A DNA stretch of 61,058 bases, the filler included, from Sluysia triapertura (lineage: Eukaryota): assembly GCA_046118255.1 (NCBI GenBank). It is 4 parts of 4 records of this genome, joined end to end, with 100 filler letters (N's around TTAATTAATTAA, not from the genome) between each part and the next. Parts side by side here need not be neighbours in the genome. Positions count along the whole stretch, not along the records: positions 49,453 to 61,058 come from JBJNIA010182857.1; 3 more parts are not named here. One strand, 5' to 3'. The notes below the pieces were generated by a model. It had not been told where the DNA came from. It was given only the letters and a program-made list of their open reading frames with translations, and made no database searches. Positions within the stretch are counted from its first letter, which is position 1. Each line of letters begins with the position of its first letter. This document shows, one piece after another, positions 11,250 through 61,058 of this stretch. Made by a program: the position numbers and the translations under genes.

Positions 11250-11480
11250 ATTACTAAAGAGAGCATTGATCAAATAATTTCAGATACATCTTATTAAGTA
11301 TACATATTTCTAATATTTCATATATAAGAGAATATCGAATAACTGCTAAACCTTCAAATTCGCACACATGATGCTAGAAAAATGGAGTTTGTGCTATAGC
11401 TACTAAACTGGTTAAATCATAATCTTCCATGACCTCTACACTTGCTGGAGAATATAAGAATATAACTTTAAAAAATATTT
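11250..11480 (-). pseudogene. ROQ-domain relic
   Basis: VIFLYSPASVEVMEDYDLTSLVAI ([24 protein letters not shown], ungapped); EFEGL...SLIYEI (TYEAL...SQIVQI). Confidence 0.55.
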
Positions 11481-12590
11481 TAATAGCATTAGTTAAACAA
11501 AAAATACAATAGAAATAATTTATTCAATCAAGAGAAAATATAATGAATAATAAAGTATAACAAACGTAGCATTATTAAAGGAATAAATATAAATAAATAA
11601 AGCTATTCAAACAAAAGAAAATCTAGTATTGGTATTCAATAAATAAACAAATATTTAGAATTCAATTTATTCAAGTAACTTGTTACCTTACGATATGTTC
11701 CAATACTAAATTAAAAATATTAAACCATTAAAGACTGACTTTAGATAATTGAACTTTAGATAGAAGGTATTAATAATTGACAGAAGATAATAGTTTTATT
11801 TAATTATTAATCATTAAATATTAAGGATAAATTATACGTCCGAAAATCAATAGATACGAAGTTTAAAAAGTTTAGTATAAATATTTATAACTGCTCTACT
11901 TATTAATTTTGAGTAACTTTGAATTAAATCTCAAACTGTACATTGATTTGATGAGAAATTTACATTGTTAGAAAGTGATAACAGAAAAGACATGACCGAC
12001 AACTCCGATTTTAAAAAATATTCGGTCAATTGAAATATCAATCCACATTAACTTACAGATTATCACTGTTTTAACTCTCTATTTGCACCTATCACATACA
12101 ACCTTCTTTTAGTTCAGCAAAAAAAGACCGTGATAATCACATTTGTATTTCTCGATTATTAAAGTTCAGCAAACATTATTCAGTTATGAATAATAAGAAT
12201 TATTTAAAATTATATTGTACGACACATTTACAACATCAAATAAATAAGAAAATTAAAAATAGAACACAATAAATACGGGATTTATAGTATAGTCGAATAA
12301 ATTATTATTCAAAATATATCAGTAAATTTTAAATAATTAAAACTGAACTAAAATAATTTAAAAAACCTTGAATAATTATATTTTTATTGAATATTTTTTC
12401 TCTGGTGAACTTGTAGAAAAATCACAATGAAATAAAACAATACTCTGTTCAAAGTTATAAATAGCTTTTTATGAATAATTAAATTTACTTAATAGTATAC
12501 CATTAAATATAACAAAATAATTACTTAATATATAATTAATGATGAGGATATTATTCATAATCATGAAAAGAATAATCTATAAACACTTAC

Positions 12591-35354: not shown

Positions 35355-35426
35355 TCCTCGATAGTATAGTGGTTAGTATCTCCGCCTGTCACGTGGAAGG
35401 CCCGGGTTCGATTCCCGGTCGGGGAG
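35355..35426 (+). tRNA. tRNA-Asp(GTC)
   Basis: 72-nt cloverleaf: acceptor TCCTCGA/TCGGGGA, anticodon arm TCCGC-CTGTCAC-GTGGA, T arm CCGGG-TTCGATT-CCCGG; T6 Pol III terminator just downstream. Confidence 0.97.
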
Positions 35427-38283: not shown

Positions 38284-38469
38284 CTGCTTTAAACTGCCCT
38301 GTTCTCTCGCAATACTTATTATCATCACTAGCGGTATAAAGACTATGCCTGTACAAGCCAGACCCCAGCCTAGTACAACAGACCACTTCGGATATTTGTA
38401 AATATTACGATTAAATCCTCGTTTGTATTCTAGTTCAGAGTAAACAACTGCACTCATTATAAATATGAT
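38284..38469 (-). CDS. SLC6 transporter exon (TM11-TM12)
   Basis: CAG|IIFIMSAVVYSELEYKRGFNRNIYKYPKWSVVLGWGLACTGIVFIPLVMIISIAREQGSLKQ|GTATTT; 186 bp; Y.YP.W...LGW motif. Confidence 0.95.
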
Positions 38470-38929
38470 CTGTAATTATTTAATTTATACGGGTTTTGTT
38501 AACACATTTTATAAGATACTTAAAAATTAAATGAAAATAAATTTATGCATATTATTTTTTTAGTTAACAACAAATTTAATCAAATTTTGCTAAATAGTGA
38601 TTAATAAAATTAAATAATTTAAATAATTAAATAATTAAATAATTACAGCTATATCTTTATTTTTTATCAAATTTTTGATGCTTTCAGTGTGTTTATGTAT
38701 GTCTTTTTACATTGAGATTAATTTCAGAATGAATTCTACAATTTAGATTTTTGAATGTAAAATAAATTCCTATTTGAAAAATTATAATGCATTGACAATA
38801 AAAGTAATAATGGAATTATTTATTTGGGTAGTTTTTTAAGATCTGCTGAATTTTATTTAAATACCAATAAAATTTAAAATTCAACTTATTTTTGATTAAA
38901 TAAACTATAGTGATATAGTAAAAGAATGA

Positions 38930-39200
38930 TTAGTTCGTTGCGTAGAAGGTTAAAAATAAACAAAAAATTACTTTATTTTAAGTAATTTCTTAACGTCAAA
39001 AATGTATTTCACTGACGAATGAAATATTGATCAATGTTGCAAAAATATAGGTTGTCGATTCCAATGTAACAAATTTCATACTAAATATAGTCCAATTTTT
39101 GTTGATAATAATTTAAATCCCAATTTTTGAAAAAAGAAGCATTACCTGACAATATGCTTATGGATTTATCGAATGAAGATGATTTCACTGGAAAAACGGA
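38930..39200 (+). pseudogene. Possible ROQ-domain relic (SLC6 intron)
   Basis: NIDQCCKNIGCRF ([13 protein letters not shown]). Confidence 0.3.
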
Positions 39201-39919
39201 AGAACGGAAGAAAAAACAATTAAACAAACAACAAATTAATATCATAGGATAAATAATTCTTTAATTTTTTTCATATTTTAATTGATGATAGTTATCAGTA
39301 TAATTAATAAGAATAATAATGATAAGAATAATGATAATGATTAAGAAGATAGTAATGATGATAACGTTGATGATTAAGAGGATAGTGATGATGATAATGA
39401 TGATAATATATATCAAATAAACCAATTAAAATTATTGTAGTAAACGAAAAGATGTTATTTGTTTAAATATTAATCGGTAAAGTCATAATTTAAAAATTTT
39501 TGAATTAAGCGACTGATGATTATGAAAATTGAAGAACTTTGAAAAAGACGCTCACGGCTGATCGTTATTAATGAACAAAGCTGCAGAAGAAATCCGACAA
39601 CACAAGGAAGGAAAGTCATCAAATCGAATTATCTACCAAAGTACTTTAAAAAAACAGACTCAGTAGCAGAACATAATTCAAATACTAATGTTGATCTCAA
39701 TGATAGGCAAAATGTTATTCAGGCCACAGAATGAATACCAAGAAAATCACCAGGAATGGACATTAGATTAATTAGTTATTTTCATTCAATAAATCCTAAT
39801 AATCCTGTCTTAATAATGTTGATGAATTACGGAACAATTACTTCTGAAGATTCGTACAGATGCGTCTATATTTAAAATACCTTTTAGAGAAAGTGATATG
39901 CATATTTTGGATATAAGTG

Positions 39920-40930
39920 GTAGTCAACTTTTACATGAAATCTAAATGTTATCAAAAGTTAGACATTCATACATCTTTCGGTATTACCGAACTTGTATTG
40001 AATTTCAACCAGTTGTTGAGCAATTAGTATATCCTTTTGGGTATTCTGTTTATGATTACATTGAGAACTGTTTGAAACAAAATAGCACTTCTGAAATTAA
40101 AGAAGTACTTGTAATAAAGATGACATCTAGTATTCTCTCAGCTCTATATTATTATTTGATAATGTCATGTACTCATAATGACATTAATGTTAAAAACATT
40201 TGGGATTTGATTGTGAATCCACGTCTAAGATTAGAAATAATTATTTTGTTACTTTTGTTTTATATAATTTTGAATCTGTATTGATTTATTTTAAAGACAT
40301 AAATAATGTCGTATCAAGGATATATTTTAATTTATTTTTTTTAATTTTTGATTTTTAATTTAAGTCTTCAAGTTTCAATTAAAAACGTTACGTCTCAAAG
40401 TATATGTACCATTTTAAAATCTTTAAAATCTATTAGTTTAACTTTATTTTAAAACTTAATGTTTTTAATTTAAATTTTAAAGTTTTTGTTCTTAAATATG
40501 TTTTAATCTTTGAGATCTATGAAGGCCTTTATCGATTTAAAATTAGAGTATATTGATAAAATGAGTATTACGATTATCCTAATTTTTAAAATGTATAAAA
40601 TTCATTACATTGATTTGAATTATATTAATAGTTTTAGAAAGATTGTTTCTTGATGTTTATTAGTTTCACGCAATATATTTATTATGTTGAATATTTGTTA
40701 TCATTTATTTTTCATAAACCTCATTATATAGTCTTAAAATACAATTCTCCTTATGCAATGGATTCAGACAATATTAACATGTATGTACTAGAATATGGCA
40801 GAATCATGGACGATCTACATGTGGACAATCAGAAGGCTGTTATAACTACTCATAAAGAAATACTATCAACTAACTTCAATATTATTCTGTGGCCCTGTAA
40901 TTCTGTACCATTTGGAACCACGACCAATTT
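39920..40930 (+). pseudogene. Protein-kinase (tyrosine-kinase-like) fragments, antisense within an SLC6 intron
   Basis: LHEI*MLSKVRHSYIFRYY...GYSVYDYI...KMTSSILSALYY...CTHNDINVKNI (subdomains III-VIb) and, ~500 bp on, SPYAMDSDNINMYVLEYGRIM (C-lobe-like); in-frame stop, no DFG seen. Confidence 0.55.
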
Positions 40931-42364
40931 AGAATGTCAGTTATTTATTTAATATAATTTACTATAACTATATGTCAAGAGTGATTAAAAATTCATTTTT
41001 TGTGGATAATAAATAAAGCAATGTTGTATTATTTTATTATTTTAACTAACAATGAATCTATTACGTGCCTTAAGTACCATTTCTATAATTATAATCGTTT
41101 GAAAATTTATATTAGAATAAATGATAAAGTTAATAGTAATGCAAGTAGTAATAACAATTCATTAATAATTAAACATAAAGATCATAATTTTAAAACCAAT
41201 ACAGATATATCCACGACAATAATATTTAACTAAAATAGTATATTCAAAGTTCTCTAATGATTCTGAATCTTCACATGAAATACGTTATAATTTTATTCAA
41301 AATATTCAATTATTTGTTTTATAGAGAGTCTATTCATAATGTTTAATTAACAATTAACTTACTCCAATCAATTCACGAAAAACAACAATTTCCAAGTTAA
41401 ATTAAATAGAATAAGGAATGATACAAATAAGATGAAAAGGGAAGATGATATAAAACGAATAAAGATTTTAAAATTAAAACCTCTTAAATGTTTAATTTAT
41501 CAATTTACGATTTTAAATTGAGAAAATTTTTTACATTGCAAGTAAAATTAATACTAATAAGAATAATAATAATTTCCAGAAACAACAACAACATAAATTT
41601 GAATTGTTGAAAATCGTAAATCGAAATCACAATCGATAGAATTTCCTATTTTCCGAAAATTTATGACTTTCGCGGTTTGAGATGATAACCAAACAATAAT
41701 AATAATAATGATGATATTGATGATAATAATAATAATATTAATATTTTAAGAACATATTTTCATTACATATGTTATCTAAGTGTTATGTTTGTATTTATAT
41801 TGATTCAATTTCAAAAGTTGTCTTGTGTCATCATATTTCCTCAATTTATACAGTTTTTGTGCAACTTCACATTTACCAATTAGTAATAAATGATTATAAT
41901 TTTTTAGCATTTTTATAATACAATAAAAGTTTAAGAGGTTTTATCATACTAAAAGAAATTAAAAGAAGAGCCATTTGTTTAGACAGAATAATTAAAACTT
42001 TACACAACTTCTACTTAATGCATGAATGAAACCACAATAAGAAAGAAATAAGATTTCATGAAATAATGAGGAGAAAAAATGGAAAAGACATTAATAGTTC
42101 ATGAATTAAATTAAATTAAGAATTATTACTTAACTTCTTTTATATTTTTTAAGGATCTCATATTTTTTGTTTCTACATGTAAAATTAATTACCTATGGAT
42201 GCCTTAAAATATTTCTTATTTTATTTTACATTGAAATAAATGATTGAATTGTGCATAGATTGGTTTATTTTCAAAGAACCTACTTTCTGTGTATGTTATT
42301 AAGTTTTTTTTGTCAAGGATTAAGCTCTATAAAATATACATTATTATCAAAGTGTATAACTAAC

Positions 42365-42465
42365 TGTCAAGTACAATGGAGTTATCAAGCCCCAAAACAC
42401 ATGCGGCATGTAACCCAGAGAATAGCCTAACATATCCTTGATGTCAGTCGAAAATTTATTAATAC
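42365..42465 (-). CDS. SLC6 transporter exon (IL5-TM11)
   Basis: TAG|(G)INKFSTDIKDMLGYSLGYMPHVFWGLITPLYLT|GTTAGT; 101 bp, phase 1/0; D..DMLG...W...TP motif. Confidence 0.95.
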
Positions 42466-42749
42466 CTAAATAAAATAAGAAATAATTTATCACATATATA
42501 AAATTGTAAAACGAATAGAAAAAAGATGCTTGAATTAATAGGAATTTATAATTATCTTTTATAATTAAGTAAAAGAAACTTAATTAGTAGTTTTGTGATG
42601 TGTATCCGTGATTTGTATCAGCTAGTTGTATTGTGTATTAATGTATGTGGTAGAAGCAAGTCAGTATGACTATCTAAATCATCCATGTCCAATTCAACAA
42701 AAGGAGTGTGCCGCAATCAAGATTCATATAATAAATAAATTTCATTTCG

Positions 42750-42797
<48 letters not shown>

Positions 42798-43936
42798 TCA
42801 CGTTTAATAAAATTTTAACTGAAATAAATTATTTTATGTACACATGAATTATACAGGGTTATTATTAGGTTATTATTTTCTGCACCAGTTTTTGATTTAG
42901 GTGCATCTGATTTTATCGTATGAATATAATCAATAAATAAATGACAGTATAATAGTCTTAAAAATCATGAATTTTCACTATCCTTCATGAGTGTTTTTTT
43001 AATAAAATTAATTAATAGTTCTTTTCAAATTGGCCAAAAAAATAAAAAAACCCAGGTTGGCCAATTTGAGAGAAATCACTGTATTTACAATAAATTTCTA
43101 ATTGGGAAATCAATGATTTATAATACAAAACATGTCTCATTTGGAATAATAGTTGTTTGTAGGTGTTCGTAGGTGCATCTGGTTCTACCTTTATTTTATT
43201 AAAAAGCCATCGAAATTCATAACGTTACGTTATTGAATGAAAATTCAATTCAAATTTCATTGTTGTTTTCATTATATTATATTTAATTGAATAATACATA
43301 ATTATTAAATAATTCAGTATGAGTTTAATTATTGAGTAAGGTTAGTGTGTCTTACCACCTACAATTAACTTTGCTTCATTTATTTTGGTATTATCGCTTT
43401 TTTATTACTGAAGATTATAAATTCTGACTTTTCTTCATTGATTTTCAAGTATTTATTTCCAAACAATTTTATCAATTCAGATACTAGTTCTTCTGTTCTT
43501 TGAATAGTATTTTCTATGTTGTTAATTTCAAATTCTGTATATATTTGCACATCATCAGCATATATATGGTATTTAAAACCACATGATTGAAACTACACTT
43601 GAAACATCATTGCTACATATATAATAAACAATAAAACATATTTTTATTTTATTGAAATTTTATAATTCTGATTTTTCATTGAAATTTATTTGATATGTAT
43701 TTTAAAGCATTTTGATCTCTCACATAAAATAATTACCAGGTTAAGTTGAATTCAACTAAAGTTTTTCTATTTTAAATTAAGTCTTTGACCACCGCAATCA
43801 ATTTCACAGATTTATTATTCATTAAGGACACTTTTTGTCACTGTACAATTTCAACTTTTAAATTTAAAAAATATAATTTTTGCCAATTCGAGGTCTTGTT
43901 GTATTTGATATATGACAAATAAAATATAAAAATTAC

Positions 43937-44036
43937 CGTAAAAGTAACACACCGCAATACATTGTAATACTGCGATAATTATTATAATTCTACTTCCGGC
44001 ATAATGATCGAATATCTGGAAAACATACATTCCTCC
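43937..44036 (-). CDS. SLC6 transporter exon (TM10)
   Basis: CAG|GGMYVFQIFDHYAGSRIIIIIAVLQCIAVCYFY(G)|GTAATT; 100 bp, phase 0/1. Confidence 0.96.
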
Positions 44037-45014
44037 CTGCAAACATATAGACAATTCAATTTACATAAAATACGTTGAATTTTAAAATGATTTTTAAAAT
44101 TGTATATCAATTAACATTAAACGTATTAATGATACAGATTGTAGAGTTAAATTGTATCGTAAATAAATTTTCTATTATTAGAATATATTACTGTGCTTTA
44201 GCATGCGTGAAGAAATATAATCTCTTACAAAGCTTTCTTTCAAATATTAAGCTTTCTTATACATCTAAAAATTTATTAATATATATATGTGAGATAATGA
44301 AAAATTTATGTACTTCAAAACATTTTCATTTAATGTATTACTTTAGCTACATTTAGAACGTTTTCAATCATGTCTTGTATGTAAGTTAAAGTAAAATTTG
44401 AAAATTTATATTTATATATAACCCATTTTATTATAAGTTCAAATATTTCATAATATTTTTAATTATGATTTTAATTAATTGTTTTTAAATTTTCATAAAT
44501 ATTTTTAATTAGTACTTTATAAAAATAATAATTTTTAATTGTAAAGTGTAATTATACAATTTAAAGAAAAAACAATTAGCTTTTAAAAATAATGGGAAAT
44601 TAATGATTTAATTATTAGAAAAATAAAAATGGATTTTTAATTGAGGAATTACTGTTCATAAAATAAATGTAAATTAATGAACTTCCCATAGATTTATTTC
44701 CATTAATACTAGTGTATTTTCGTTTAAAAGAATTTAAATAAGCACATTTTTTGCGAAAAATAACAACAATAACACTGAAAAACACGGAGAATTTCGTCAT
44801 CATCATTGGACTTAAAGGATTGGACAATTAATTTATAATAACAAGGAGTGTTTCGGCAAAGGTAGTTACCATATTTATGTGGTATGTCGAGTAGCGGATC
44901 TTTGCAATAATTATCTGTTTAAATCACGAGTGTTCTTGCTACAACAATTCTCATTTATGCTTGTCAGGGTTTCCTTACTTAAGTAGGCAAGGTTAGTCTT
45001 GCTTTTGTCACTTT

Positions 45015-45435
45015 TAATGATGTAAAAGAAACAGTTTTAAAACATCTTAACAAACTCAAAGACGATTTTCTGAATACCTTCCAGATCTTCATTTACATAC
45101 TGTCAGATGGATTGTTGAACCGTTAAATGTAAACTTACTGATACACTGAAAGATGCTCAAGGATTAGCAAAATCTTTTCTTGATCTTCGATGAAATTCTG
45201 AAGCGCGCATTGAATTTGATAATAAAGTACATTTGTCACAATTTGGGATATCCAAACCTTCAAAGGTTTTTAGAATTGTACACGAAGAAGCAATAAAAAA
45301 AAGTTATTGTCCTTTGCAACAGCCTACTTTTGTAAAGCGAGATTTTCTGTTTTAACAAAGAAGAGAAATCATTTGAATGCTGAAGTTTGTATTTAGATTA
45401 CTTTATCTTCAATTTGTCCAGATATTGTTGGTGTT
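45015..45435 (+). mobile_element. hAT (Buster/Charlie-type) transposase C-terminal relic
   Basis: VLKHLNKLKDDF..YLPD...WIVEP...FLDLR*NSEARIEF...LLSFATAYFCKARFSVL..KKRNHLNAE...LSSICPDI matches the hAT dimerisation motif 'LPF.TTYLCE..FS.L....K.RN.L'. Confidence 0.85.
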
Positions 45436-45699
45436 GCATTTATTAATTAATTAATTTCTAATTAATTTATGATTGATTTTTTCATATTTATTAAAAATTA
45501 AATTAATTAAAGAGAGGGTTAATGATAAAATTACTAAATCATATTTGGGTGGAGGGAAAGTACCCCGACCTTGGAGTTAAGGTGTACGATAATGATTTTA
45601 TAAATTTTGTAACATTCAATAAAAGAAAATAAAGAATTATATATAGAGTTAGATAGCGGTTTATAGACTAAATTTTAGAGTTATATTTCATTATAACCA

Positions 45700-46030
45700 A
45701 ATTTTCAGACTCAACATTTCTAAATGTTAGCAATTTAATTGTAAGATTGAAATTGTGGCTGGTGATGCTGATAGTTCCTTTTTAAAATGCACTAATGTTA
45801 ATTTAAATTCTGTATTAATTGAAATAATTAAAGATGAATTGTTAGACACGTTAAATTATTATGTTATAATTTTGTGTTTTAAAATTCTTAAGCAGTGCAT
45901 GGGTGCATTGAATGCTGTCGGATGATTTAGTGATATTGATCTAGTTAAGTTTGTATGTGACTCATTTGTTTTCCGCAAAACTTTCGAAAGGAGTAAAATG
46001 TTTTTGCTACTCATGGAGTAATTTTAATGT
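45700..46030 (-). pseudogene. ROQ-domain relic (in SLC6 intron)
   Basis: NHPTAFNAPMHCLRIL...FNVSNNSSLIISINTEFK ([17 protein letters not shown]...[20 protein letters not shown]). Confidence 0.45.
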
Positions 46031-46086
46031 CTTTCATTTCTATGATATATTATTGAAAATGTTCTTGATATAGACAAAAGTTACCT

Positions 46087-46174
46087 TCCATAATATATAT
46101 GGTAAATATTAGATACAGGCCTCAAGTGCCATTTAGAATAATGATAGTTCCGTGTTCGATTCCCGGTCAGTCCA
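46087..46174 (+). pseudogene. Decayed tRNA (Asp/Glu/Gly-like) or tRNA-derived SINE head
   Basis: CCGTGTTCGATTCCCGGTC (46150-46168) is 18/19 identical to the T arm of the tRNA-Asp; 46087-46110 loosely matches its 5' part; no intact anticodon arm. Confidence 0.5.
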
Positions 46175-46733
46175 TTTATTGAAGTCTAATTTGTATAATT
46201 ATGTATAAGATTAGCAGCAGTTGATGGAAACTGAATAAAAATTAGTCATAATTTGGATGAATAAAAATGAATATACAATGGACTAAGAATTTTAGATTTT
46301 GATGAAGAAAGGGTTGACAGATTGATTGAAATTAAAGATCAACGCGAAGAAATTATCCAAGAATCTTCGAATATATGGGATTTAATCGAAGAATTAGAAC
46401 TGTGCTCAAAATAATCCCAATTTAGCTAGGAATGATTTTGGTTGCACATAAACTTAATGAAGTCGACAAATATTTCAGAAAAATTTATTAATAATGAAAA
46501 TGTGTAAACCTGTGAAAGAAGTCTATGTTCGAAATGGTTTTATATTGAAGAATGAGTAAATAAATAATTCTTGTATTTATTTTCTTTATATAATCAAATA
46601 ATTATTTATTGCCTCTACTTTAGACTTATTTGCTGAACTCCACAAACTAATGTAACATTTTCTTAATTTTAAGGTTTATATTAAAACAATAAATAACACT
46701 AATTATAAAAATGTTTAATAAGCATAAACTTAC

Positions 46734-46871
46734 ATTGGTTACCATAGAAAGACCAATTAGAAAATTACACGAGCAAACAATTGCAATAAATATAGTTTTA
46801 TTTGTTTTATTACTCATCCAAATAGGAAATAAGTCACTCACTGCCGTTATAAATCCCTCAACTCCAACAAA
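46734..46871 (-). CDS. SLC6 transporter exon (TM8-TM9)
   Basis: TAG|FVGVEGFITAVSDLFPIWMSNKTNKTIFIAIVCSCNFLIGLSMVTN|GTAAGT; 138 bp, phase 0/0, continues the previous exon in frame. Confidence 0.96.
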
Positions 46872-48731
46872 CTAAATATTAGCTTTATTGTTTTATAATA
46901 ACAATTATAATATTTTATGTATATAAATAAATTATATTTAATAATCATAAAGAGGACAGAGAGATAAATTCTACCGCCATCTTGATATTTACTTTATTCA
47001 CAACAGAAGTAGTAGAACAACTAATTTACAGTGTTGTTTATAAATAAATAAAATCCGTAAAATTTTAATTTGAAAATATTATTAAAAAGAACGTATAGAA
47101 TTTTAACAGTTTTTTTTATTTATTCGTATATTTTAAACAAATTAAAATTTTTCATATTAACGATAAATTGATTTTTTGGTTTAGTTAATTTAACGAAATT
47201 AAATTTATTAAATTCAAGTAGATTTCCATTATATTTTTGTATAATTTTCATTAACAATAAGAAATTTATTATTATATTGTTAACGTTTTAAATATATAAC
47301 ATTCCACTGTTGGTAATTGAGGTTAGATAAATTATAAAACTAAAATTTAATCTGATATTCAGGAATTCCATTTATAAATTATACTCTTGTTTTAATTAGT
47401 AAGTTTTCTGATATTATAAATTTGGAATAATGTATATATACTAATTTTGGGATATTGTACGACACCATTTTTTTGAAAAAATAATTTTTAGTATAGTTGA
47501 CACCAATTTTGGGATATAAACAGTTTGATGTATGTGTTAGATTTGATATGTTGTTAAGCCAAGCGGATTGAATTAAATTTAAATGTATCTTAACGGTGTC
47601 ATTTAGAAATCTCGAAATGAGATTGATGTACGATTGAGGCTTATGCAGTCATAGATGACGTATTTCGTTTATGTAGTATATTTATGAAAATGTATTTGGT
47701 ACAAATTGAAGTTCATACTTTTCAGATTATGAAAACAAAATTTTATTAATATTTAAATACACTTCACAAAAGAACCGTTTTATTTTCCAGTTACTAGACA
47801 TAACTAATGTCGTTTTTTATAACTAGCACCTTCTTTCATTTCTTTCTAATTTGTATTATAGATAAAAATTAATCTCACCTCTCGGCCAGTTATAATCATA
47901 ACATGTACTTATAATCATAACGATATTCTTATAATCGTTTCCTAATCCATGAATTTGCTGTTTGTTTTTATTTTATATATACTTTTTGAACATGTATACT
48001 GATCGAATATAATATCTTGCTAGTTACGGTACTGAATAGTTATATGGTCGTAAATTTACTTTGTAAAAACTTCACGTTGGTCAAAATTTATTAAAATAAA
48101 TACTGTCATTCAGAAATTATATTCTAATGGTAATCATTTTTATTTCTGGTAAAAGACTCATTCCTTTATTAATACATAGTGATCGACTGACAAATCATTC
48201 GAATGTTTGACTCTATGTGGTCGTCCTACCCCAATAATTTTGAATCTTATAGTAATAAGAAAAAGTGTGTCGATCTTCGCGTTGTTTAAATAACTATTAT
48301 TATTTTAATCAAAAGTTTTTTATTTAGAAGTTTAGTGAACACTACAGTAAAAGAAATGGAAAAGTACACAATGCTAGTTGAGGTCATTAGCTTCAACCTG
48401 AAGTTTATAATGATTTAAATCAAAATATCGGAGCACGTGATATGACTATTTTATTTAGAAGTTTCAGTTACTAAAAGAAAAAAATTTAAATTCATCCCAA
48501 AAGTGGGACATTGGCAGACAATGGGTAGACCCTATATTATATTGTATTAAATTCATAATATTAATTTTATTTATTATTTTATGTACTTATTAAAAAATCT
48601 TTTCATTGGACGTTCTTGTTTTACATCTTATTGAATAAAATCGATAATATGTAATTTATTCATTTATTCTTTATTTTAAAACTAAATTTAAGTTATTTCA
48701 TAAATTAAAATAATTAATTATACGTACTAAC

Positions 48732-48969
48732 CTGACTGTCAAGACCAAGTAAAATAATCATAGCAAAAAACAATACTGCCCAAACAGAAACAAATGGCAT
48801 TTCATTAAGAGCTTTTGGATAAACAATAAAAGCAAGTCCGGGACCACTTGAAACAACTTTGTCAATAGGAATTCCAGTTTTGTGATGCATAAATCCCAAA
48901 GTCATGAATATAACAAACCCGGCAAAGAAACTGGTACCACTATTCACCAAGGAAAATAATATGCAATCC
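48732..48969 (-). CDS. SLC6 sodium/chloride-dependent transporter (GABA/taurine/creatine-like), internal exon (TM7-TM8)
   Basis: AG|G GAT TGC... encodes [27 protein letters not shown]...[14 protein letters not shown]...LLGLDSQ|GTTAGT; SLC6 signatures GPGLAF.YP and LGLDSQ; phase-2 acceptor, phase-0 donor. Upstream exons are not in the window. Confidence 0.96.
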
Positions 48970-49282
48970 CTTTATGAAAAAATATATTCAATGTTTAAAG
49001 ATTTTTTTAATAATAATCTATTATCATTTCAAATTCAAGTTTGTAATTTTTTATTTAATTGATTTAATTTAGGTAAAGATTAGATAAAACTCGAAGTAAG
49101 AAATTTTAGGTGTAAATAAATCTAATAACATACAAGTTATCTTAAAATAAAATAAAATATAACAAAAAATGAATAAAACGTCTAATTAAACTCAAAATAA
49201 GCATCTTGTACCTTTGTAAATTACATTTTCGTGGCGTATAGGACTAAGTGTCTCAATTCAATTCAATCAAGGTCAAATAAAA

Positions 49283-49352
<70 letters not shown>

Positions 49353-49699
49353 NNNNNNNNNNNNNNNNNNNNNNNNNNNNNNNNNNNNNNNNNNNNTTAA
49401 TTAATTAANNNNNNNNNNNNNNNNNNNNNNNNNNNNNNNNNNNNNNNNNNNNCAATGAATGAATTATTATGTGTTGATAAATTAGTAATAAAGGTTGATC
49501 TTAAGGCCTTTGCTGGCTATTATATATATGTGACTTATAAAATCTTTGATTTTCATAGTGTAAATATAAATCAAAAAATCTTTCGTTATTATTTTGTACA
49601 TAAATTTCATGAAATTTTTTGCGAACCTTCTCATAGAATCTTGTGTTATTATAAATTGCCCTGGTCTCTTAAAATACTTGTAAATAAACATAACATGAC

Positions 49700-50130
49700 C
49701 AGTGGTCAAAATGCAACAAAAGACCATGAGGCATTAAAAGGTCTTAAATTACTACACAATAATATAAAAACGAATAAAACTCTATTTAATCATAAGCAAT
49801 TAACGCCCTCCGCAAAGTGCCAGACCACTTCCATTCCTACAGAGACATTTGACAAGACATTTAGCAGGTATTTCTACCTTGATGTTCGGTGGTCGAAGAG
49901 GTATTTTGAATATCGATTCTTCACGAAAACTAATTGAGAATGTAAACGAAACTTGCCACGAATTTCAACCAGAACGAGGTACTAAAGTAATTGACAATTT
50001 CTATATTCCTATTTTAACTCATTGTGATGTTTTTTATTTTTTAGGATCAAACAGACTAGTAATGTCAATATAAGTATGCAAAATGTTTGCGGCTCACAAA
50101 AATTTTATAATCTCAAAAAATAAATGTTAT
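49700..50130 (+). pseudogene. ROQ-domain relic
   Basis: RDI*QDI*QVFLP*CSVVEEVF (SNLWAAV..QFLGPAMQEEAL); LPRISTRT...QFLY...CF (FPQASKTS...QLLY...CF). Confidence 0.35.
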
Positions 50131-51959
50131 AGTGCGTACACCTTCTTATTTTCTAAAGTATTTAAATTAAAATTTATTTATAATATGACATATATAATTT
50201 GTCAAAATTAAAGAACCCTACTTGTATAATTTTTAAAAACGAAAAAAATTTTTGCAAAGATCAATTTTATAGCAATTAAAGTAATCTTCTAACTGTTCGA
50301 AAATTTTTAGTTATGAAGAGCAACAAATTCCAAAATAATTATTTTTATAATATTAATGTCAATCTTATTAACCTACAAAATTGGTGTCATGAGTACAAAA
50401 GAATATGCCTGTATTTTGTATACATGGTCGAATCATGGGTTGTGGATCCTTCTGGTAATTTTATTTTAAAATGCATAAATTTTAATTTAATTTCTAAAAT
50501 TATATCTTAAATATATAAATAAGTATAACAAACTTTATAATATTCAATTTGTACAAACTATATTTTCACTGATAATTTTATAAATGTAAATAAAATAATG
50601 TATAAAGATATAAATATTTATAGAAATATTATGAAAGATATTTTAAAAATTCTTTTAACAACAATAATATACACAAATCCTCTGAACGTAATACCTACAA
50701 AATAACAACATTCACACCTTCATCCAATAATAATGTAAAATTTAATAACAGATTCAATCCTAACAATGTCCAACAAAATACTAATATTATATCCGTCACT
50801 GCACAAAACGTCGAAGCATCTCTTATTCTAAACATAAATGACAACAAGGACAAAAGAAATAAACAAGCCACCTACCTTCATTCGATTCAACATTTATCAA
50901 ACACAAAGCAAATAAAATAAAGTCAAAGAAAAAAATACTTAGGCAACAATACCAGTTTATTCCAAAATACGTCTACTAACAAAAGTAATAACATAAGCTC
51001 ACATAATAACATCGTCATACTACCAACAAATAAAGTACCACAATTCAAATTATTCAAAACAAATAACAAATCAACTTACAAACACAAAATACAAAATAAT
51101 ACATCTAATCTTATCAAACCTTCACAAAACCATACAAAGAATAAAAACAATTATATACATATACACAACAAACGCAACACAACCCTCGATATTCAAAACA
51201 AATAACAAATATCTTTATAAACATCAAACTCAAAATCATCTCATCAACTTACCGGATAAATACATCGCCACAAATTCCGTCCATAAATCCAATAAAATTT
51301 TAAGTTAAGGGATTGCTATTACGTCAGTCATATCTTTGAACTGTTCCATAAATATACGACAAGGTAAAAACAACACAATAAGAGTCCATTATACTACAAT
51401 CTACCCAGGGACGTAATATTAAATTACAACTTAGATGGTCCCCCAATACATATAAAATAAATGGTAATAAATCCTTAACTTCAAACAAGTTAATATGCCT
51501 AACAACATACCAAAATAACTGGCTAAGAATGTAAATAACAAAGCCAATATTCAAAATCAAAAACAATTGAGTACTCGTAATAGACAATCAACAACAGATT
51601 TTAGCCATCAAATCTATACAATTCAAAACAAGAAACTAAACAAAAAGGAATCTACTACTTCAAAAGCAATTCCAAACCACAATCTTCATTCTAATAATGC
51701 AACAATACCCCGTTCAATTCTAAAACAAAAAGAAATTTTGCCAAGAACATTAATTCATTCCACCACGGCATTTGAACTTCATGTGCATAGAGAGATGAAC
51801 ACATTCACCAGTAAGAAAACCCAAGTTAATCAAATTATACCTATAAAAATAAAAACGCCGATCACATCAAGTTATTACACAAACTAACTAACCACCACAA
51901 GGCATACTTCACTTATCAGGCGCAACCTCTACGTCTCCACTTAATATTTAATGATTATA

Positions 51960-54900
51960 ATATTTCACAGGGGGCAATTATTTCAATAAATCATCAACTA
52001 CCCGGTGGTACTGACGACGAACCTGAACTTCCACCACGTCGTCTCAATTTTTCTTGGATGACACTGGTTCTCCTAATACATGGTTTATGGTTGTTGAAGC
52101 CATGTTTAAAACCAGTGCAATCAAACATCAAACCGCCAAGTTTAACCACTTTTAAGTAAGCTTAGTCCAAAAATTCAAACGTGTATTGCCTCAAAGTATC
52201 CTTATGACGAACTCAAACAAATCGTCATACAGCAATACCGACCTAATTCTTTCAAGTCCAAACATTAGGTTCACTATCACCCTCGGAATTTTTCGCAAAA
52301 ATAAAACAGATCTAGCGCATTTTGGCTGTGATATCGATGAAAAAATATTATTGTTTCTCACAGTTCAAGGCATACTCGTTGGTACGCAGAATACCAAAAT
52401 TGACGAATTTGCCAAAATTGCCGATAACATTATTGCATTCTGGAATAAGAACCATCAAAAACCTCTATACACATTGAACGATTCTTTTTCCAGTAATCAA
52501 AAATTTACTGCAACAAATACCTAAAAACAAAATATTCTCCTACGAGTCGAAAATTTGACTAAACAAGTAGTAGACTTAACAAAAATTCTAATTTCAAAAT
52601 CAAGAGAACTCACCACCAAGGACAAATTCCCCCACATTCTTAACGAGTTCCTCTAACTCAAATAAATTTAATAGAAATAAAAAATCCTTCAATGGAATCT
52701 GTTATTATCACAACAGATTTCAACATGCTAAAACATGTTTATTAGGATGAAAACTTCCAAATAAACCGACAACCTTAACAATCAAAAACCTATGCGCACA
52801 TTTTCAAAAAAATTCTAGATGCATGGATGGCTGTATCCATTTCAAACAAAACCTTAACCCTCGATCAAAAAACTAAATTCGCCAACGGTCAAAGCGGCTA
52901 GACCGAAACATTTGGCAATCAATGGTATTTTCAGTGCCGCTAATCTCTACCGATTTCAAATATATCAAAAAGGGTTTTCTAATTGACACTGGAGCTGCCG
53001 TGTCTCTGATACCACAGACACGTTCATTTCTTACAGCAGCTAACGGAACAACCGTTACCTGCTATGGCTCCAGAAAACTACAATTCAAATTACCTCATTT
53101 CAACAAGGTCTTTGAATGGACTTTTCTAATTGCCGCAGTACAGCAACCGATAATTGGAGCCGATTTCCTAACCCACTATAAACTCCTAGTCGATTGCCAC
53201 AATAAAACTTTAACCAAGTCCTTCGAACAACTTAATAATATTAAAATTAAATTAGAGGATCTCAACAACAATAATATCACACAATATATACAACAAATTC
53301 ACCCAAACTTACTTCTCGAACAATTTAATCCAGAATACATTCCTAAATCAGAAAATTTTATCAAAACAGTACCCAAAGCGTGCAGACTAAGACGACGAGA
53401 ACTAGCACAAAAAATACGTTCTTAGCAGAGACAGAATTCCTTGAAATGGAAAGACAAGGAATAGTGCGACGCTCTTCTTCAAAAGAAAGATGAAACAGTA
53501 AAGATATGTAGTGACTACAGAATGCTTAATAAAGTCACTGTTCCAGACGCATATCCTATGCCACTTATAACAGACATCTTTCACAGATTTACTGCTTGCA
53601 CAATATTCTCTTCAATAGACCTGGCTATAGCGTACCACCAAATCCCAGTACATACTGAGGATATACCAAAAACAGCCGTAACAACTCCTTTCGGTCTAAG
53701 AAATGCAGCACAAACCTTCCAGCGTCACATCGATCAAGTTCTTCAAGGCTTAACTTTTACTACAGCCTCTATCGATGACAACATAATTGCTTCCAGAGGT
53801 TTCAAACAACATCAAACACGTATGGAACAAGTATTTCAAAGACTTTCCGACAATAATTTAATAATCAAAATCAATAAATGCCAATTTTTCAAAAATAAAA
53901 TCACTTTCCTAGGTCACAATATCTCTGTTGACGGGATAGAACCACTGCAAACCCGTACAACAGCAATAAGAGACTTGCCACAACCTAAAACTGTTACACA
54001 AATGAGAAGTTTCTTAGGCCTAGTTAATTATTGTCGACGCTTCATCCCGAAACTCTCAGAAATTATTGCACCATTAACAGTTTAATTATCTGGAAAGAAG
54101 AACCAACAAATCAATTGGAATACCAAATCTCTTGACTCTTTTGAACAAACAAAACAAGCAATTATGAAGATGGAACGTTTGGCATTTCCACAACAACATT
54201 TACCGTTCATCTTAACAACAGATGCTTCAAACATAGCAACCAGACCCATTGAATTTTACTCACACAAACTTTCTTCACAACAAACCAGATATTCGGCATT
54301 CGACCGTGAATTGCTAGCAATTTACCAGTCTGTGAAACACTTTGAGTATTTATTACTCCCAACACAATTGAGACTTAGAATAGACCACAAACCGTCGTTG
54401 CACATCTTCACGATGAAAAACCCCACTCCAAGACAACAACAGATATTAGCTACTTGTCCCAATTCAACTTCAATATAGAATTTATCCCAGGACAAGAAAA
54501 TGTGGTCGTCGACGTATTATCACGTGTAGGTCTAAACAGCATCGAATTCCAGTCAATATTCACTGTCGAAGAATTACAAAACAATCCACCATCTAGTCTA
54601 GAAATTGCCAAATTTTCAATAAAACCATCATTACACAATGGAATTTTCTACGACTACCAATTATCAGGTACTTTTTGACCAGTGCTAGGACAAAAGCTCC
54701 GAGTCAAAACCTTTGAACATATCCACAATATGACACACGCCGGAGCCAAGGCCACATATGAATTACTACATTCAAAAGTAGTATGGCCTTTAATGCGCCG
54801 AGACATCAAAAACTGGTGTAAAGCCTGTTTGACTTGTCAATCGGTGAAAATTCACAAAAAACAAAAAACCACAAACGCTTCACTTCCCCACAGGCCAACT

Positions 54901-55830
54901 CTTTGATACCATACACATGGACATAATCGGCCCACTACCACAATCCCATGGTTACACCTACATTTTAACTATACTGGACCGATACAGCAAATGGTCTGAA
55001 GTGTTTCCAATCAGATCAATTACAACGGACACCATATCCAGAATTCGAATAACCAACTGGATTTCACGCCTTGGTGTACCCAAAAGAATTATCACAGATC
55101 AAGAAACTCAATTCGAGTCTAGCCTTTTGAATAATCTACGAACAACTTCATACCATCCACAATCTAATCGTATGATAGAGAGATTCCATAGAACTCTCAA
55201 AAATTCCTTACGCGCGCTTTCAATAAATCATAACTTGGTTGAAGCGTTACCTTTAATCTTATTAGGCTAGCGTAATATCCCTCATTCTTCAACAGGATAT
55301 TCTCCAGCTCAAATCGTATTAGAAACCAATACTAGATCACCCTTTGAATTGTTTCAGCATGATAATGCATCAGAAAGAACATATTTACCTCTATTGCGGC
55401 AATATTTCAACACAACGAAAATCTTCAACACGCCACAACACGTCACAAGGAAAATCTTCACATTTATATACCTAAAATCATTTCAGACATTAAATTTGTG
55501 TGGCTTAAATTAGAAAATCCAAAATCTCTTCAACCAAGATACACCGACTCTTAGAAAGTCATCCAGTTCAATTGAAATAACAACACAGCTTCGATCGACA
55601 TTAACAGAAAATCTAAAAAAATTAAAAAAATCTAAAATAAAAATAAACTAGCTACAACCCTAGTTGAAGAAGATTCACAAACTATACCTATAAAGAAATC
55701 GGTAACCTTCTATAAAGCGGCTACTCTACTAATTAACAAGGTTTACACAAAATTCAATTAAACCTATCACATTCATCTTAATTTTAAACGTCTGTCGCTC
55801 CGCGTCTTCGAAGGGGGCTGATATGGTGGG
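51960..55830 (+). mobile_element. Decayed Ty3/Gypsy LTR retrotransposon (gag-pol)
   Basis: gag (PNTWFMVVEAMF; CYYHNRF...C), protease (FLIDTGAAVS), RT (DYRMLN, IDLAIAYHQ, TPFGLRNAAQTFQR, SIDD), RNase H (TTDAS, YSAFDRELLAI), integrase (HNMTHAG...CKACLTC; MDIIGPLP; IITDQ; IERFHRTLK); Gypsy order RT-RH-IN; many stops and frameshifts; purine tract GAAGGGGG at 55810. No convincing LTR pair. Confidence 0.95.
52922..55270 (+). pseudogene. Gypsy pol (PR-RT-RH-IN), fragmented
   Basis: ORF pieces 52922-53425, 53522-54085, 54164-54478, 54454-54678, 54682-54906, 54917-55270 tile the pol domains in order. Confidence 0.95.
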
Positions 55831-57192
55831 CAACCTATTACTTTTAACAATTTTATTAAAGATTTTATTTTAAACATAAAAAACCACGTACATTTATAAA
55901 ATATACATTTTCAAAAATTCATTAAAAACATTTTTTACATAATCCTATGCCAATATAATCAAAATTATGTTTCAATAAAACGCTTACCCTAAAAATCTAC
56001 AACTCACATTTTCAAATTCGCAATTCAATACAAACATAACTAAAATCATATCCTTTTCAACATTACGCAACAACCTTGTAGAATTCGTTAAAACCGTTTC
56101 TATATCTTATTTCTTTTCAGCTTCACAAAAATCAACTCCCATTTTTCAAAAAATTGTAAAACTACAATCTCGTAACATACAAACCATAATGACATTCAAA
56201 ACCATCAATTTACATTAAAAAATTCATCAAAAATATTTTATTCGTCATGTCATAACAATCCCACTACAACCACATTCGAATTTAACTACCAGACACCTTC
56301 AAATTAATTCAAACATTCTAAATTCATGATCTTTTATTATTTAATCTTCAACAGAAGACAATACTACTTAAACCTATCAAGAAAATAAATCGTATTTTTA
56401 ACATTGTAAATCATCTTGCCAACTTAGCAAAAGCTAGACTATAACTTATCTACTTCTCATACACCAAACTACACTCTTTTCAACGCAATTTTAAGTTACA
56501 ATCCTAACAGATAAACAGTACTTTCATTCAAAACTCCAATGCACATTTATCACTCATTTTAAACACTCATGTTATTTCAATACTCAAGCTCACCTTCAGT
56601 CAAAAACCTTAATTATCATCTAAAAATTCATTATAAACATTATACACCTTAACATACAGCGTTATAACCACAATCACACCATAAAACATCAACCATACAT
56701 TCAAAACTAATTTAAAACATCTCAAATCAGAAATGCCTAACATTATAAGGTAACAACTGTATTTTAAGTTTTAAAGATTTAAATATGTAAAAAATATTAA
56801 AGAATATAAGAAAAGTTTGTTTTAAAGAATTTAAGGAATTTATCTAATTATTTGTAATGAATAATAATAACACTATATTATTATTATTATCAACACAAAT
56901 TTTAATTTTGATCGATCATTTTCGTAGCTACCACTATCATTGGGTGATTTAATTTACATTTATAATAATTGTCACCATTAATAGTGGTTAGTGTTTACTT
57001 TCATAGCATAAGAAAGATTTTGCTCATTATTTTTATATATCTCTGGTTGAACAACCAATCCAGACACAAAGTAAATGTTATAGATACGAAAAATTTTAAA
57101 ACAGTAATTAGAATCTCAATTAGTAAAAAATTTTACAAAAACGACGATTTTGAAACTTGAAATTACAAACCTTTTTATTTAATAACAATTAA

Positions 57193-57750
57193 ATGTTATC
57201 AGACTTAAACATAGTCAAACATCAATTAAATATTAAAATTGATAAAAAGCATATCAACGAAGCCGATCCAACTGCTTTACTGTTAAGTAGAGACTTTCAG
57301 AATCATATAGCAGCATTTCTCAAATTAAATTATGATAGAAATGATAACAAACTATATAAAGATGTCGAAGTATTAATACCACAATTAGAAGAATCTGATC
57401 TAAGTTTGAGAAGTAGTAAAAAATCTAAAACAATTAATAAGCAAAATCAGAATTATCTTGATTTACGATGTTTACAAATTATTCGTGCGATAATTTAGAA
57501 TCAAGAAGTGCAATTTCCGACAGATTTGGAAAATCGTATAATAGATAATGAAGTACAAGAAGTAATTATAGCTATCGATCAAGTACAGAATAGTTTGGAT
57601 AAGCTAAAAGTATCAAATCTTTCTCAAATACATACGATTAATTCTATTGATTCCGTCAGAAAGGAAGTTATCGTGTTAAAATAAGCTATTTTAATTAATA
57701 GAAATCCTGCAATACAATCTAATATGTTGAAATTCTTCTTGAACTCAAAA
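57193..57750 (+). pseudogene. Inositol-1,4,5-trisphosphate-receptor-like coding fragment (armadillo/central region), with in-frame stops
   Basis: LLLSRDFQNHIAAF...LIPQLEES...LDLRCLQIIRAII*NQEVQFPTDLE...IDQVQNSLDKLKVSNL...VRKEVIVLK*AILINRNPAIQSNMLKFFLNSKK; recalls ITPR 'EVQCHLDKEGASNL...E.I.L..ALL.GGN..IQ' and invertebrate ITPR-like 'LD.KCLQ.LRA.IHN'; stops at 57496 and 57682. Confidence 0.7.
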
Positions 57751-57754
57751 AAAC

Positions 57755-58360
57755 AACATACCAGTTACATATAAAAATCAACCAATTTATTTAGAACCAG
57801 TTAAAAGAATAATATTACCAACTAATAAACTAAAACCAAAAATATTACATTGTTCTAACGTGATGGCACCAGAATACAAAATTGATGATAATTTATGGAT
57901 ATCATTACCTCACCACAGTCAAGTTAAAACTCCAGAAATAATTGGATTAACAGAATAGAAATCAAAATTAAAATTCAAAGCTACGAAAAATATTCCAAGA
58001 TGGGGAATATATTTAAATGAGGATATTTAAGCAGCTTTCCTATCAAAAGATCAAAAGTTTTAACAGAAATTGTGGATAAAACAGTAGTAGAAACAAATGG
58101 TAAAATAAAATTTGAATTATTATTAGGACCGGATCACTTTAAGAAAGTTTCACACAATACATTAAAACAAATTTGGGGAAGTTTTTTGGTATTGGGACAA
58201 GCATATTCAGGATTAATCGGAATATATATAATAATTAAAGTTATCGCTCTTATAATATCATAGATATTTTCGTTGGTAGGTATATACAAAATATCAGGCT
58301 TTACATGGAGACGAATAATAGGGTATTTTCCATTTTTACATCATCATACACATTCTCAGC
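57755..58360 (+). pseudogene. C-terminal part of a chuvirus-G / gB-like (class III) envelope glycoprotein
   Basis: NIPVTYKNQPIYLEPVKRII...HCSNVMAPEYKIDDNLWISLP...PEII...WGIYLNEDI / FPIKRSKVLTEIVDK...LKQIWGSFLVLGQAYSGLIGIYIIIKVIALIIS*IFSLVGIYKISGFTW; motif order matches recalled chuvirus-like G (LPV...FL.P.TRI...C...P.Y.I...W...P...GIY..ED...FP.....W..F..FG....G..GI + TM). Confidence 0.75.
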
Positions 58361-58363
58361 TAA

Positions 58364-59890
58364 ATGCTTTTAAGAAAACAAACAGAAGAGATAGCATTAC
58401 AAACAATTAATGTTGATACAGTAGAAGAAATAAATGAAGTAAAACAAGGTCTATATTCGTCAAGAAATTTGGTTTATATGATCCGTGCAAATAATAATTA
58501 TAATAGTGCAAAAATACCAATGGTAGAAATGAAAGTAAATGGAAGAATGTTAACAGAATTGGTAGATACTAGAGCAGTTGCTTCTTTAATCAAAATTAAC
58601 TAAGAAAGAACTTAATAATCTGTCTAAACAACATTCTTATTTAACAGGTGTAAGCGGAGGTGAAATCGAAATTCTTGGAGTATTAAAATTATATATGTGA
58701 AATTGGAAATAATAAAATTGAAATTAAATGTAGAGTAATGAGAAAATGTCCTGAAGATATGGTATTATGAATGGATGTGTTATCACAATTAAAAGGAGTC
58801 TTAGACTTTAATAAAGCAAGATAAATGGATAGTTATACTGATGGAGTACTTGATGATGATGATGATGTTATATTAGAAGAACCTCATTGGATATTAAGTC
58901 GAACTGAATATATTATACCAGGTAAAACAAATAGTCTCAGAAATAATCCGATAATGTTTATTGCATCAAAGAATAACCAATAAAAGTTGAATATTGGTAT
59001 AGCAGATTCTCTTTGTAGAATCAGCGATGAAAATATTCCAATAAGAATAATAAATTATACAGAAGAAAATAAATGGTTATATGCAGGAACGAAATTAGGA
59101 GAAACAGTAAATTATAAATTAGAGACTCAGATAAATTTAATATCGAATAATAATAAACAAAAACATAAGAATATTAAAGTACAAAGAAATATAGATACCG
59201 ACGACGAAGAAGATTATGAAGAAATATAAATTAAAAATAAGAATTTACAAAATATCAAAAGGAATTACTATATAAAGTTATTTAATATAGTAATTATTAT
59301 AGTTATTATTATAGAAGATTTGTAAAAGATTTTGCAAAAATTGCTCGACCTTTACTAATGCTGACTAAAAAGAATGTAACATTTAATGGACTGAAAAACA
59401 AACTAAAGCATTCAAACAATTAAAAGAAAAATTAACAACAGCTCCAATTTTAATGTTTCCAGATATGAACAAACTATTTATATTAACAACTAATGCTAGT
59501 AATTTTGCTGTAGGAGCAATACTGGGACAGAAAAATAAAGATAACTTAGAAGGAGTAATAGCATATGCAAGTAGAAGATTAAATAAAGCACACATGAATT
59601 ATTCTACAATAGAAAGAGAATGTCTAGCTGTAGTATATGCTTGCAAATTATTTAGACATTATTTACCATCATCTCAATATTCAGAAACTCCGGAATACAT
59701 AACAATATTGAGAAAAAATTTACAAGATGCTTGGAAACGCGCAGGTTTACAAATACGATATACTCAAGAAAATTACAAAGATAATTATGATAAAAAAGCT
59801 AAAGCACATAATTTTGAAATTGGAGATAAAGTATTAGTGGATTATCCAATTGCGAAACCAGGATACACTGTTTCAAAGTTTATGTTATAA
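58364..59890 (+). mobile_element. Second Ty3/Gypsy relic (protease, RT thumb/RNase H, integrase C-terminus) with large internal deletions
   Basis: IPMVEMKVNGRMLTELVDTRAVASLI (DTG->DTR); YYRRFVKDFAKIARPL...KLTTAPILMFPD...TNASNFAVGAILGQ...VIAYASRRL...YSTIERECLAVV...FRHYL joined directly to ...YDKKAKAHNFEIGDKVLV. Confidence 0.9.
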
Positions 59891-59929
59891 AATGTTTAAG
59901 AAAAGAAAAAATCAATTATATCACAGATA

Positions 59930-60090
59930 CTATAATTTATCTCAAGTGTCTTTGCACTGCAGATAATCGAAAACTTGTTTAAACCAATCAGATCGCTTAG
60001 AGTGCATCTTCGTTTCGTTCAACCAAAAGCTCAAAATCAGATGTTCAAAGTGAACCATCCCTTCATGTTACTTCTTGTTTATTACCTAAT
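59930..60090 (-). pseudogene. Possible ROQ-domain relic between two Gypsy relics
   Basis: MKGWFTL...NEDAL*AI*LV (ARGCQFL...[11 protein letters not shown]). Confidence 0.25.
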
Positions 60091-60229
60091 AATTTAAATT
60101 GAAAAGATATTAATGTTTATTCAATTTTATTTAGAGTTTTTAATTTGTTAACGTTTTAATAAATGAGTCAAACACCAAAAGTTTTATAATACTCAGAAAA
60201 TTCTTTCGATAAAGTAATAAGTAATGTAA

Positions 60230-60822
60230 TAATCCAAAGTTGGAGAATCCCAATATATAGACCATCATAAGGTTTGTAGAATTTATTACTGAAACCCTTT
60301 TTATATAATTGGGTATATAATAATATTAAATCACCTTTTTTAAATTTTATTGGATTAACCTTACTATCATAATATTGTTTACGAAACTCCTGGGAAAACT
60401 TTACATTAAATTTAGCTCTTGTCCATACTTCTTTCATTATCTGTAAATAATTGTCTTCTTCTAAATATTTTGATGAATCAAGTATTAAGGATAAATACAT
60501 ATATAATCTGGTTTCTCGAAAGTACATTAAATAAAATGGAAATTTTTAGTAGCTTTTAGTATGCGAATAAACAAGGTGCAATGATTTCATCCTAATCATT
60601 TTGTTGATCATTAGTATATGATCACTAGTAAATGTAATGTGTGATTAAATCTTTCGACTAAACCATCGGTTTGTGGATTGTAAGCAGATGTTGTTGTCTT
60701 AGTAATGCGGAAAACGTTTCATTTTTCTACCATTATTTCACTAGTAAAATGAGTACCTTATGCAGTTATTAATTTTTTAGGTGGCTCATATCTGAAAATA
60801 ATTTCTTCAATAAATAATTTTG
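60230..60822 (-). mobile_element. Gypsy integrase core/C-terminal relic
   Basis: IIFRYEPPKKLITA*GTHFTS...TTSAYNPQTDGLVERFNHTL and SQEFRKQYYDSKVNPIKFKKGDLILL...KFYKPYDGLY. Confidence 0.88.
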
Positions 60823-61058
60823 CTATTGTTGATGCTCTTTGCTCAGTGTAGTGAGGGCTTTTGAATAAATAAACGTATTGTTAACACAGCCGTTTCGAAT
60901 GGATGTAATACGGATTCGTATATGCTCATGTTCTCCCTTTTCAGCGTCGAAAGTGCGATAATAAGTAATCGTTTTCTTAGCATGAGTTAATGCTATTTCA
61001 AAGTCAGGTAAACAACGCAGAGACATGTTGTCCTCTTTTTGAGAACTAAAACTATTAT
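60823..61058 (-). pseudogene. ROQ-domain relic (truncated by window edge)
   Basis: CLCVVYLTLK*H*LMLRKRLL ([21 protein letters not shown], ungapped); TTLSKEHQQ (EALRREHDS); abuts the Gypsy integrase relic. Confidence 0.5.

Follow-up and report, generated by a model that had tools for sequence, protein, structure and literature searches.

A fragment of Sluysia triapertura DNA (positions 57752-59890 of the 61,058-nt stretch analysed here, hereafter the window) contains an envelope (env) remnant followed directly by the remnants of a Ty3/Gypsy pol region on the same strand. We consider it very probable that this is a dead, internally deleted Ty3/Gypsy copy with a chuvirus/gB-type env upstream of its protease, residing in a likely planarian host and descended from an element that likely encoded a (gag)-env-pol polyprotein. 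This env-before-protease layout is real but has already been published for planarian Burro elements.

The envelope remnant

The env remnant is split into two plus-strand pieces, which matched the Pfam profile PF24664 (Monjiviricetes_fusion) above its curated cut-off and at consecutive profile positions. Piece 1 (57752-58036) represents the C-terminal part of the ectodomain (profile positions 398-484, E = 6.2e-11) and is 25-42% identical to the matching polyprotein relatives; piece 2 (58036-58410) comprises the membrane-proximal region, a transmembrane stretch at about 58180-58300 according to hydropathy, and the cytoplasmic tail (positions 492-584, E = 1.1e-12), with 32-50% identity to relatives. 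The Pfam queries were 57743-58027 and 58021-58404, with stops read as X. Four of six stand-alone G proteins also matched the env region (E < 0.01), their best pieces scoring 33-37 bits, and the top score obtained with 30 shuffles of 50001-61058 was 26.6 bits. The original prediction had described the C-terminal half of a chuvirus-type glycoprotein, and both this identification and the quoted peptides, all recovered at their places by six-frame translation, were borne out. Judged by profile similarity, the segment is a remnant of a chuvirus-type (class III) fusion glycoprotein.

Fold searches based on a relative, P0014, further support a class III fusion protein for the family. The AlphaFold model of P0014 was poor (mean pLDDT 50, pTM 0.30), and the top Foldseek matches were chuvirus-like glycoproteins among viral models (best E = 3.9e-26) and herpesvirus gB in the PDB (best E = 1.6e-8), both with low TM-scores of 0.1-0.2. 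A sequence search of the PDB with P0014 returned weak Bcl-xL matches only, gB not being among them, and PF24664 clusters scored 0.95-0.96 in the Atlas.

The remnant starts abruptly at 57752, and about 400 N-terminal positions of the PF24664 profile are absent. Its frame is open to 58410 and that of the protease is open from 58364, giving a 47-nt overlap and, as had been claimed, no non-coding spacer. The frame change predicted at this junction is present; the one frameshift and stop originally described understate the damage, with further env stops at 57956-57958 and 58261-58263 and a frameshift near 58030, at the end of piece 1.

Protease-to-integrase remnants

Downstream of env, protease (PR), reverse transcriptase (RT), RNase H (RH) and integrase (IN) remnants follow on one strand in the order typical of Ty3/Gypsy elements (Metaviridae). 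The region 58364-58603 (+) contains the env-protease linker and the N-terminal half of an aspartic protease, assigned by alignment, by spacing and by RVP matches below the cut-off (E = 0.0023-0.009). The proposed Gypsy protease is thus placed directly after env as predicted but is weak when taken alone, its catalytic motif at 58565 being degenerate. Its frame is broken again near 58600 and 58697; downstream, the copy has a further break near 59384, and several stops lie between these breaks. The rest of the protease and then a domain intervening between PR and RT occupy 58608-59190 (+), where tblastn revealed 22-33% identity to P0005, P0010, P0015, P0075, P0077 and L001 across several stops and frameshifts. 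This region had no Pfam match of its own; the PR-RT domain is conserved, and neither the window nor L001 matched PF00692 there. In Burro elements, the intervening domain has been named dUTPase-like (PMC6431247).

Only the thumb end of RT survives (59313-59384, +; 52-58% identity to relatives), the fingers and palm being missing (about 71 codons here versus 312 residues in P0010). It is followed by the RT connection and the N-terminal half of RNase H (59387-59665, +; PF17919, E = 7e-36). Together with a PF17917 match (E = 2.7e-23), this indicates a Gypsy-type RT/RNase H, although the RT core itself is deleted. An internal deletion from mid-RNase H through the integrase core has removed the zinc finger and core, leaving 386 residues of P0075 without a counterpart and fusing the integrase C-terminal tail (59666-59890, +; match 59666-59869, 33-54% identity to relatives) in frame to the RNase H half. 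The RT, RNase H and integrase remnants predicted on this strand are therefore all present, although RT is reduced to its thumb end and integrase to its tail, with the palm and integrase core missing.

No LTR-like repeat pair was found in the window, as expected for a copy cut at both ends, and Pfam, homologue and relative-protein comparisons within the window identified no gag in the copy. The 2.1 kb that remain lack gag, cargo domains and LTRs; the copy is dead and unable to encode a working product.

Relatives with env and pol in one frame

We searched for relatives using env piece 2. A word-seeded protein search found nothing, but a full HMMER database scan yielded 71 matches, 19 of them at E <= 1e-10. 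Pfam scanning covered all 19 best matches, 14 of the weaker 52 and 3 cluster members. Among the 19 best matches, 13 contain a protease after env within the same protein; of the other six, five are fragments (96-199 aa) and one is a protein of 748 aa that stops shortly past the transmembrane stretch. Four proteins (P0005, P0010, P0075 and P0077) encode env, PR, RT, RH and IN together, and P0015 does so up to RH. P0010 (HBK71150.1) is an env-pol Gypsy polyprotein labelled as a protein of a Flavobacteriaceae MAG, a label that likely reflects animal DNA in a bacterial bin.

Similar organization was seen at the DNA level in three metagenome-contig loci (L001, L002 and L003). L001 has a single env-PR-RT-RH-IN frame of 3426 aa that is open at its 5' end, and L003 has one of 2693 aa with a zf-CCHC domain (zinc knuckle) before env. 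In L002, the only one of the three with this arrangement, a gag/ubiquitin-like frame ends at a single stop (3058-3060) and env continues in the same frame; this stop may be a mutation or a read-through site. Gag marks ahead of env were detected in P0009, P0020, P0079, L002 and L003. No LTR-like repeats were found inside L001-L003, and the contigs may end within the elements. L001 also contains a separate ORF past the polyprotein (10617-12107, +) with an RNase T-type exonuclease match (E = 1.4e-5).

The window copy is collinear with these relatives, matching them piece by piece and in the same order by tblastn. Between the WGxF and protease motifs there are about 131 codons in this copy, compared to 132-392 in 15 of 18 relatives measured (of the remaining three, two end early and one has no anchor). 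All seven env-pol relatives compared share 53-60% identity with the env-linked RNase H piece, versus 31% for the other Gypsy element in the window, and the env piece is 36-54% identical to most polyprotein envs versus 32-35% to stand-alone G proteins. Because the relatives are fused, the window is collinear with them, the spacing is similar and RNase H is this closely related, a chance adjacency of env and protease is very unlikely, and these sequence comparisons point to an ancestral link. An RNase H tree was uninformative on placement, with none of its branches starred and without a proper outgroup.

Scans of viral contigs found no relative. Contigs from two runs matched 49500-61058 in 13,456 and 870 records, mostly less than 95% alike; one of these runs, X1, may come from the source sample. 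Summed depth, which is not a copy number, was far greater over env, PR and RH than over 56834-57605 and fits a large repeat family. None of the 16 contig matches listed, out of about 14,800, bridged the env-protease junction in another copy.

Several relatives carry additional features. Extra signal-plus-transmembrane units follow the integrase in P0005, P0010, P0075, P0077, L001 and L003, and L001 has another at about residues 1582-1776; the tails of P0075 and L001 are homologous (E = 6e-11). These post-integrase units have no counterpart in the window and are not mentioned in the passages on Burro and errantiviruses in PMC6431247 and PMC13524379. A simple pattern also detected 3-7 protease motifs per polyprotein in P0077, P0009, P0005, P0011 and L001, some of them after the integrase.

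Host context and neighbouring elements

The window includes an SLC6 transporter gene in five exon pieces (38290-48971, -), closest to Schmidtea mediterranea slc6a-2. The exon at 48714-48971 is 80% identical to this protein and at most 68% identical to the other 119 matches listed; over all five pieces, 181 of 294 positions are identical to S. mediterranea, compared to 45-53% for seven named non-flatworm proteins, and one further protein also reached 62% over two pieces. The host is likely a planarian, an assignment that derives from this one gene. GC content is about 0.16-0.30 outside the elements, and a tRNA-Asp(GTC) gene (35355-35426, +) adjoins an assembly gap.

A second decayed Gypsy element lies upstream (50500-56800, +, with coding remnants at 52156-55350). 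It has PR, RT, RH and IN matches, belongs to a distant lineage without an env match, and its extent is marked by a strong negative GC skew. We considered whether this upstream Gypsy (52877-55350) and the env-bearing element are one and rejected this, as its RNase H shares 31% identity with the env-linked RNase H and 25-32% with those of env-pol relatives. On the other side, the end of an integrase core and C-terminus from a different env-pol-type relative (60246-60870 to the window end, -; at most 60% identical to P0010) sits tail to tail with the studied element. It was likewise rejected as an inverted part of the same copy, with its tail 31% identical to the plus-strand tail.

Immediately ahead of the env break lies a nearly open frame of 186 codons (57193-57750, +) that we left unassigned. 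As a gag candidate it had no Pfam match and no homologue, and comparison with 79 proteins and three locus ORFs gave no match under E 1.9. In the Atlas it scored under 0.9, with a weak endonuclease lead, and one contig matches 57412-57750 and then diverges.

Proposed expression and alternative explanations

From hydropathy and general knowledge of polyprotein topology, we propose that in intact relatives a single round of translation would yield the (gag)-env-pol chain. Ahead of Env, an internal signal sequence would direct the ectodomain into the ER lumen, where host signal peptidase would cut before it and release the Env N-terminus; the transmembrane stretch would then bring the chain back to the cytosol, leaving Pol attached to the Env tail on the cytosolic side. 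The element's protease, initially tethered to this tail, would cut itself, RT and integrase loose. Of 11 polyproteins with a recognizable Env start, 5 had a hydrophobic run before it that exceeded the hydropathy threshold, and a membrane stretch after the ectodomain was predicted in all 12 polyproteins examined. After insertion, the copy lost its 5' part, RT core and integrase core and collected stops and frameshifts. The original prediction had posited an enveloped, potentially infectious Gypsy ancestor with gB/chuvirus-type env upstream of pol in perhaps a single polyprotein; the intact relatives show this layout and thereby support it, and such an ancestor may have been infectious.

We read the loss of frame at the junction as, most likely, a further product of decay, since the relatives are in frame here and the copy has many other breaks. 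The overlapping frames could instead mean that env and pol of the same element were separate, with programmed frameshifting within 58364-58410 setting the Env:Pol ratio. There is no stop between the frames over these 47 nt, and the single gag-env stop of L002 suggests that recoding may exist in the group, but env and protease lie within one protein in 15 of the 18 relatives measured, at least four further frameshifts and several stops interrupt this copy, and inspection of the overlap by eye revealed no canonical slippery heptamer. We regard programmed frameshifting as improbable, and give the same low credence to its extension, that the planarian family is a compact, single-protease env-pol branch with a programmed junction frameshift producing Env in excess over Pol. 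We know of no earlier recoding signal between env and pol, so that, if true, the junction frameshift would be the first.

The surroundings do resemble a transposon graveyard, with the other Gypsy element (about 52900-55350), the 57193-57750 piece and the inverted integrase (60246-60870) forming a pile of fragments in which an integrated chuvirus G fragment might have landed beside an unrelated Gypsy pol. Yet the env piece has its closest relatives among env-pol polyproteins and not free G proteins, order and spacing agree with these relatives, and they are also the proteins that the RNase H piece matches; chance neighbourhood is largely refuted already and is, in our estimate, very improbable. 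A fusogen or restriction gene domesticated by the host from env is harder still to credit: no point in its favour was found, and the loss of about 400 N-terminal profile positions, together with two stops and a frameshift, refutes it for this copy. We thus retain the decayed env-pol Gypsy copy as the explanation for this locus.

Relation to published elements

The order of env before pol is unusual, as originally predicted, but it is not new, being in print for planarian Burro (PMC6431247) and across phyla (PMC13524379). Burro/GYPSM1 are giant Gypsy-like planarian elements whose env lies in frame, with gag before it and pol after it (Arkhipova and Yushenova 2019, PMC6431247, which cites the earlier work of Grohme 2018 and Jurka 2007). 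As described there, Burro has an Env homologous to mononegavirus fusion glycoproteins placed in frame before PR, as do the relatives of the window copy, a domain called dUTPase-like between PR and RT, at the position where the window has a conserved domain, and a planarian host, which is likely here too from one gene. Decaying Burro fragments with stops and frameshifts have also been described in Dugesia japonica (PMC6431247). In contrast to giant Burro elements with cargo (BCL2, ubiquitin-like, ankyrin and BIR), the 2.1-kb window copy lacks that part of the element, and weak marks occur in relatives only (Bcl-2 in P0014, E = 0.00096; ankyrin in P0077; ubiquitin-like in L002, E = 0.0047). Burro env-pol is described as one ORF, as in the relatives, whereas in the window copy the frame is broken at the junction. 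A single protease follows env closely in the copy, as in P0010, P0015 and L003, whereas several relatives have 2-7 protease motifs. This likeness to Burro was judged from the published description.

GAG-ENV-POL errantiviruses with HSV/gB-type env have further been reported in Platyhelminthes, Nematoda and Bryozoa (Chary and Hayashi, eLife 2026, PMC13524379), with nine Platyhelminthes elements listed, six of them in S. mediterranea, at up to 215 copies. They carry a gB-type env upstream of pol, as in the window, and GAG-ENV-POL elements are reported there not to be one clade; by eye, the S. mediterranea ectodomain rows resemble our database relatives. That survey concerns intact elements, whereas the window copy is decayed and lacks the Env segment that the survey's supplement gives. 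The words 'polyprotein' and 'in-frame' are absent from its main text, although its figures may show frame structure. Two other systems are more distant: nematode metaviruses (Sacco et al. 2022, cited in PMC13524379) have a flipped env/pol order in a Gypsy element but belong to another phylum, and mosquito BEL/Pao elements with chuvirus G (Dezordi et al. 2020, PMC7642597) share the glycoprotein family but have a BEL/Pao rather than a Gypsy pol.

Taken together, the element works like a Burro-type GAG-ENV-POL errantivirus and most likely descends from one; with gag, cargo, LTRs and the RT core gone, strict Burro membership is beyond what this copy can establish. How the membrane-spanning Gag-Env-Pol chain is cut, and whether particles spread between cells, are questions for the group that a copy without gag, RT core and integrase core cannot address but that L001 and L003 can. 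As a fossil, the copy itself adds one more genome, probably that of a planarian, to those carrying the enveloped flatworm retroelements already in print.
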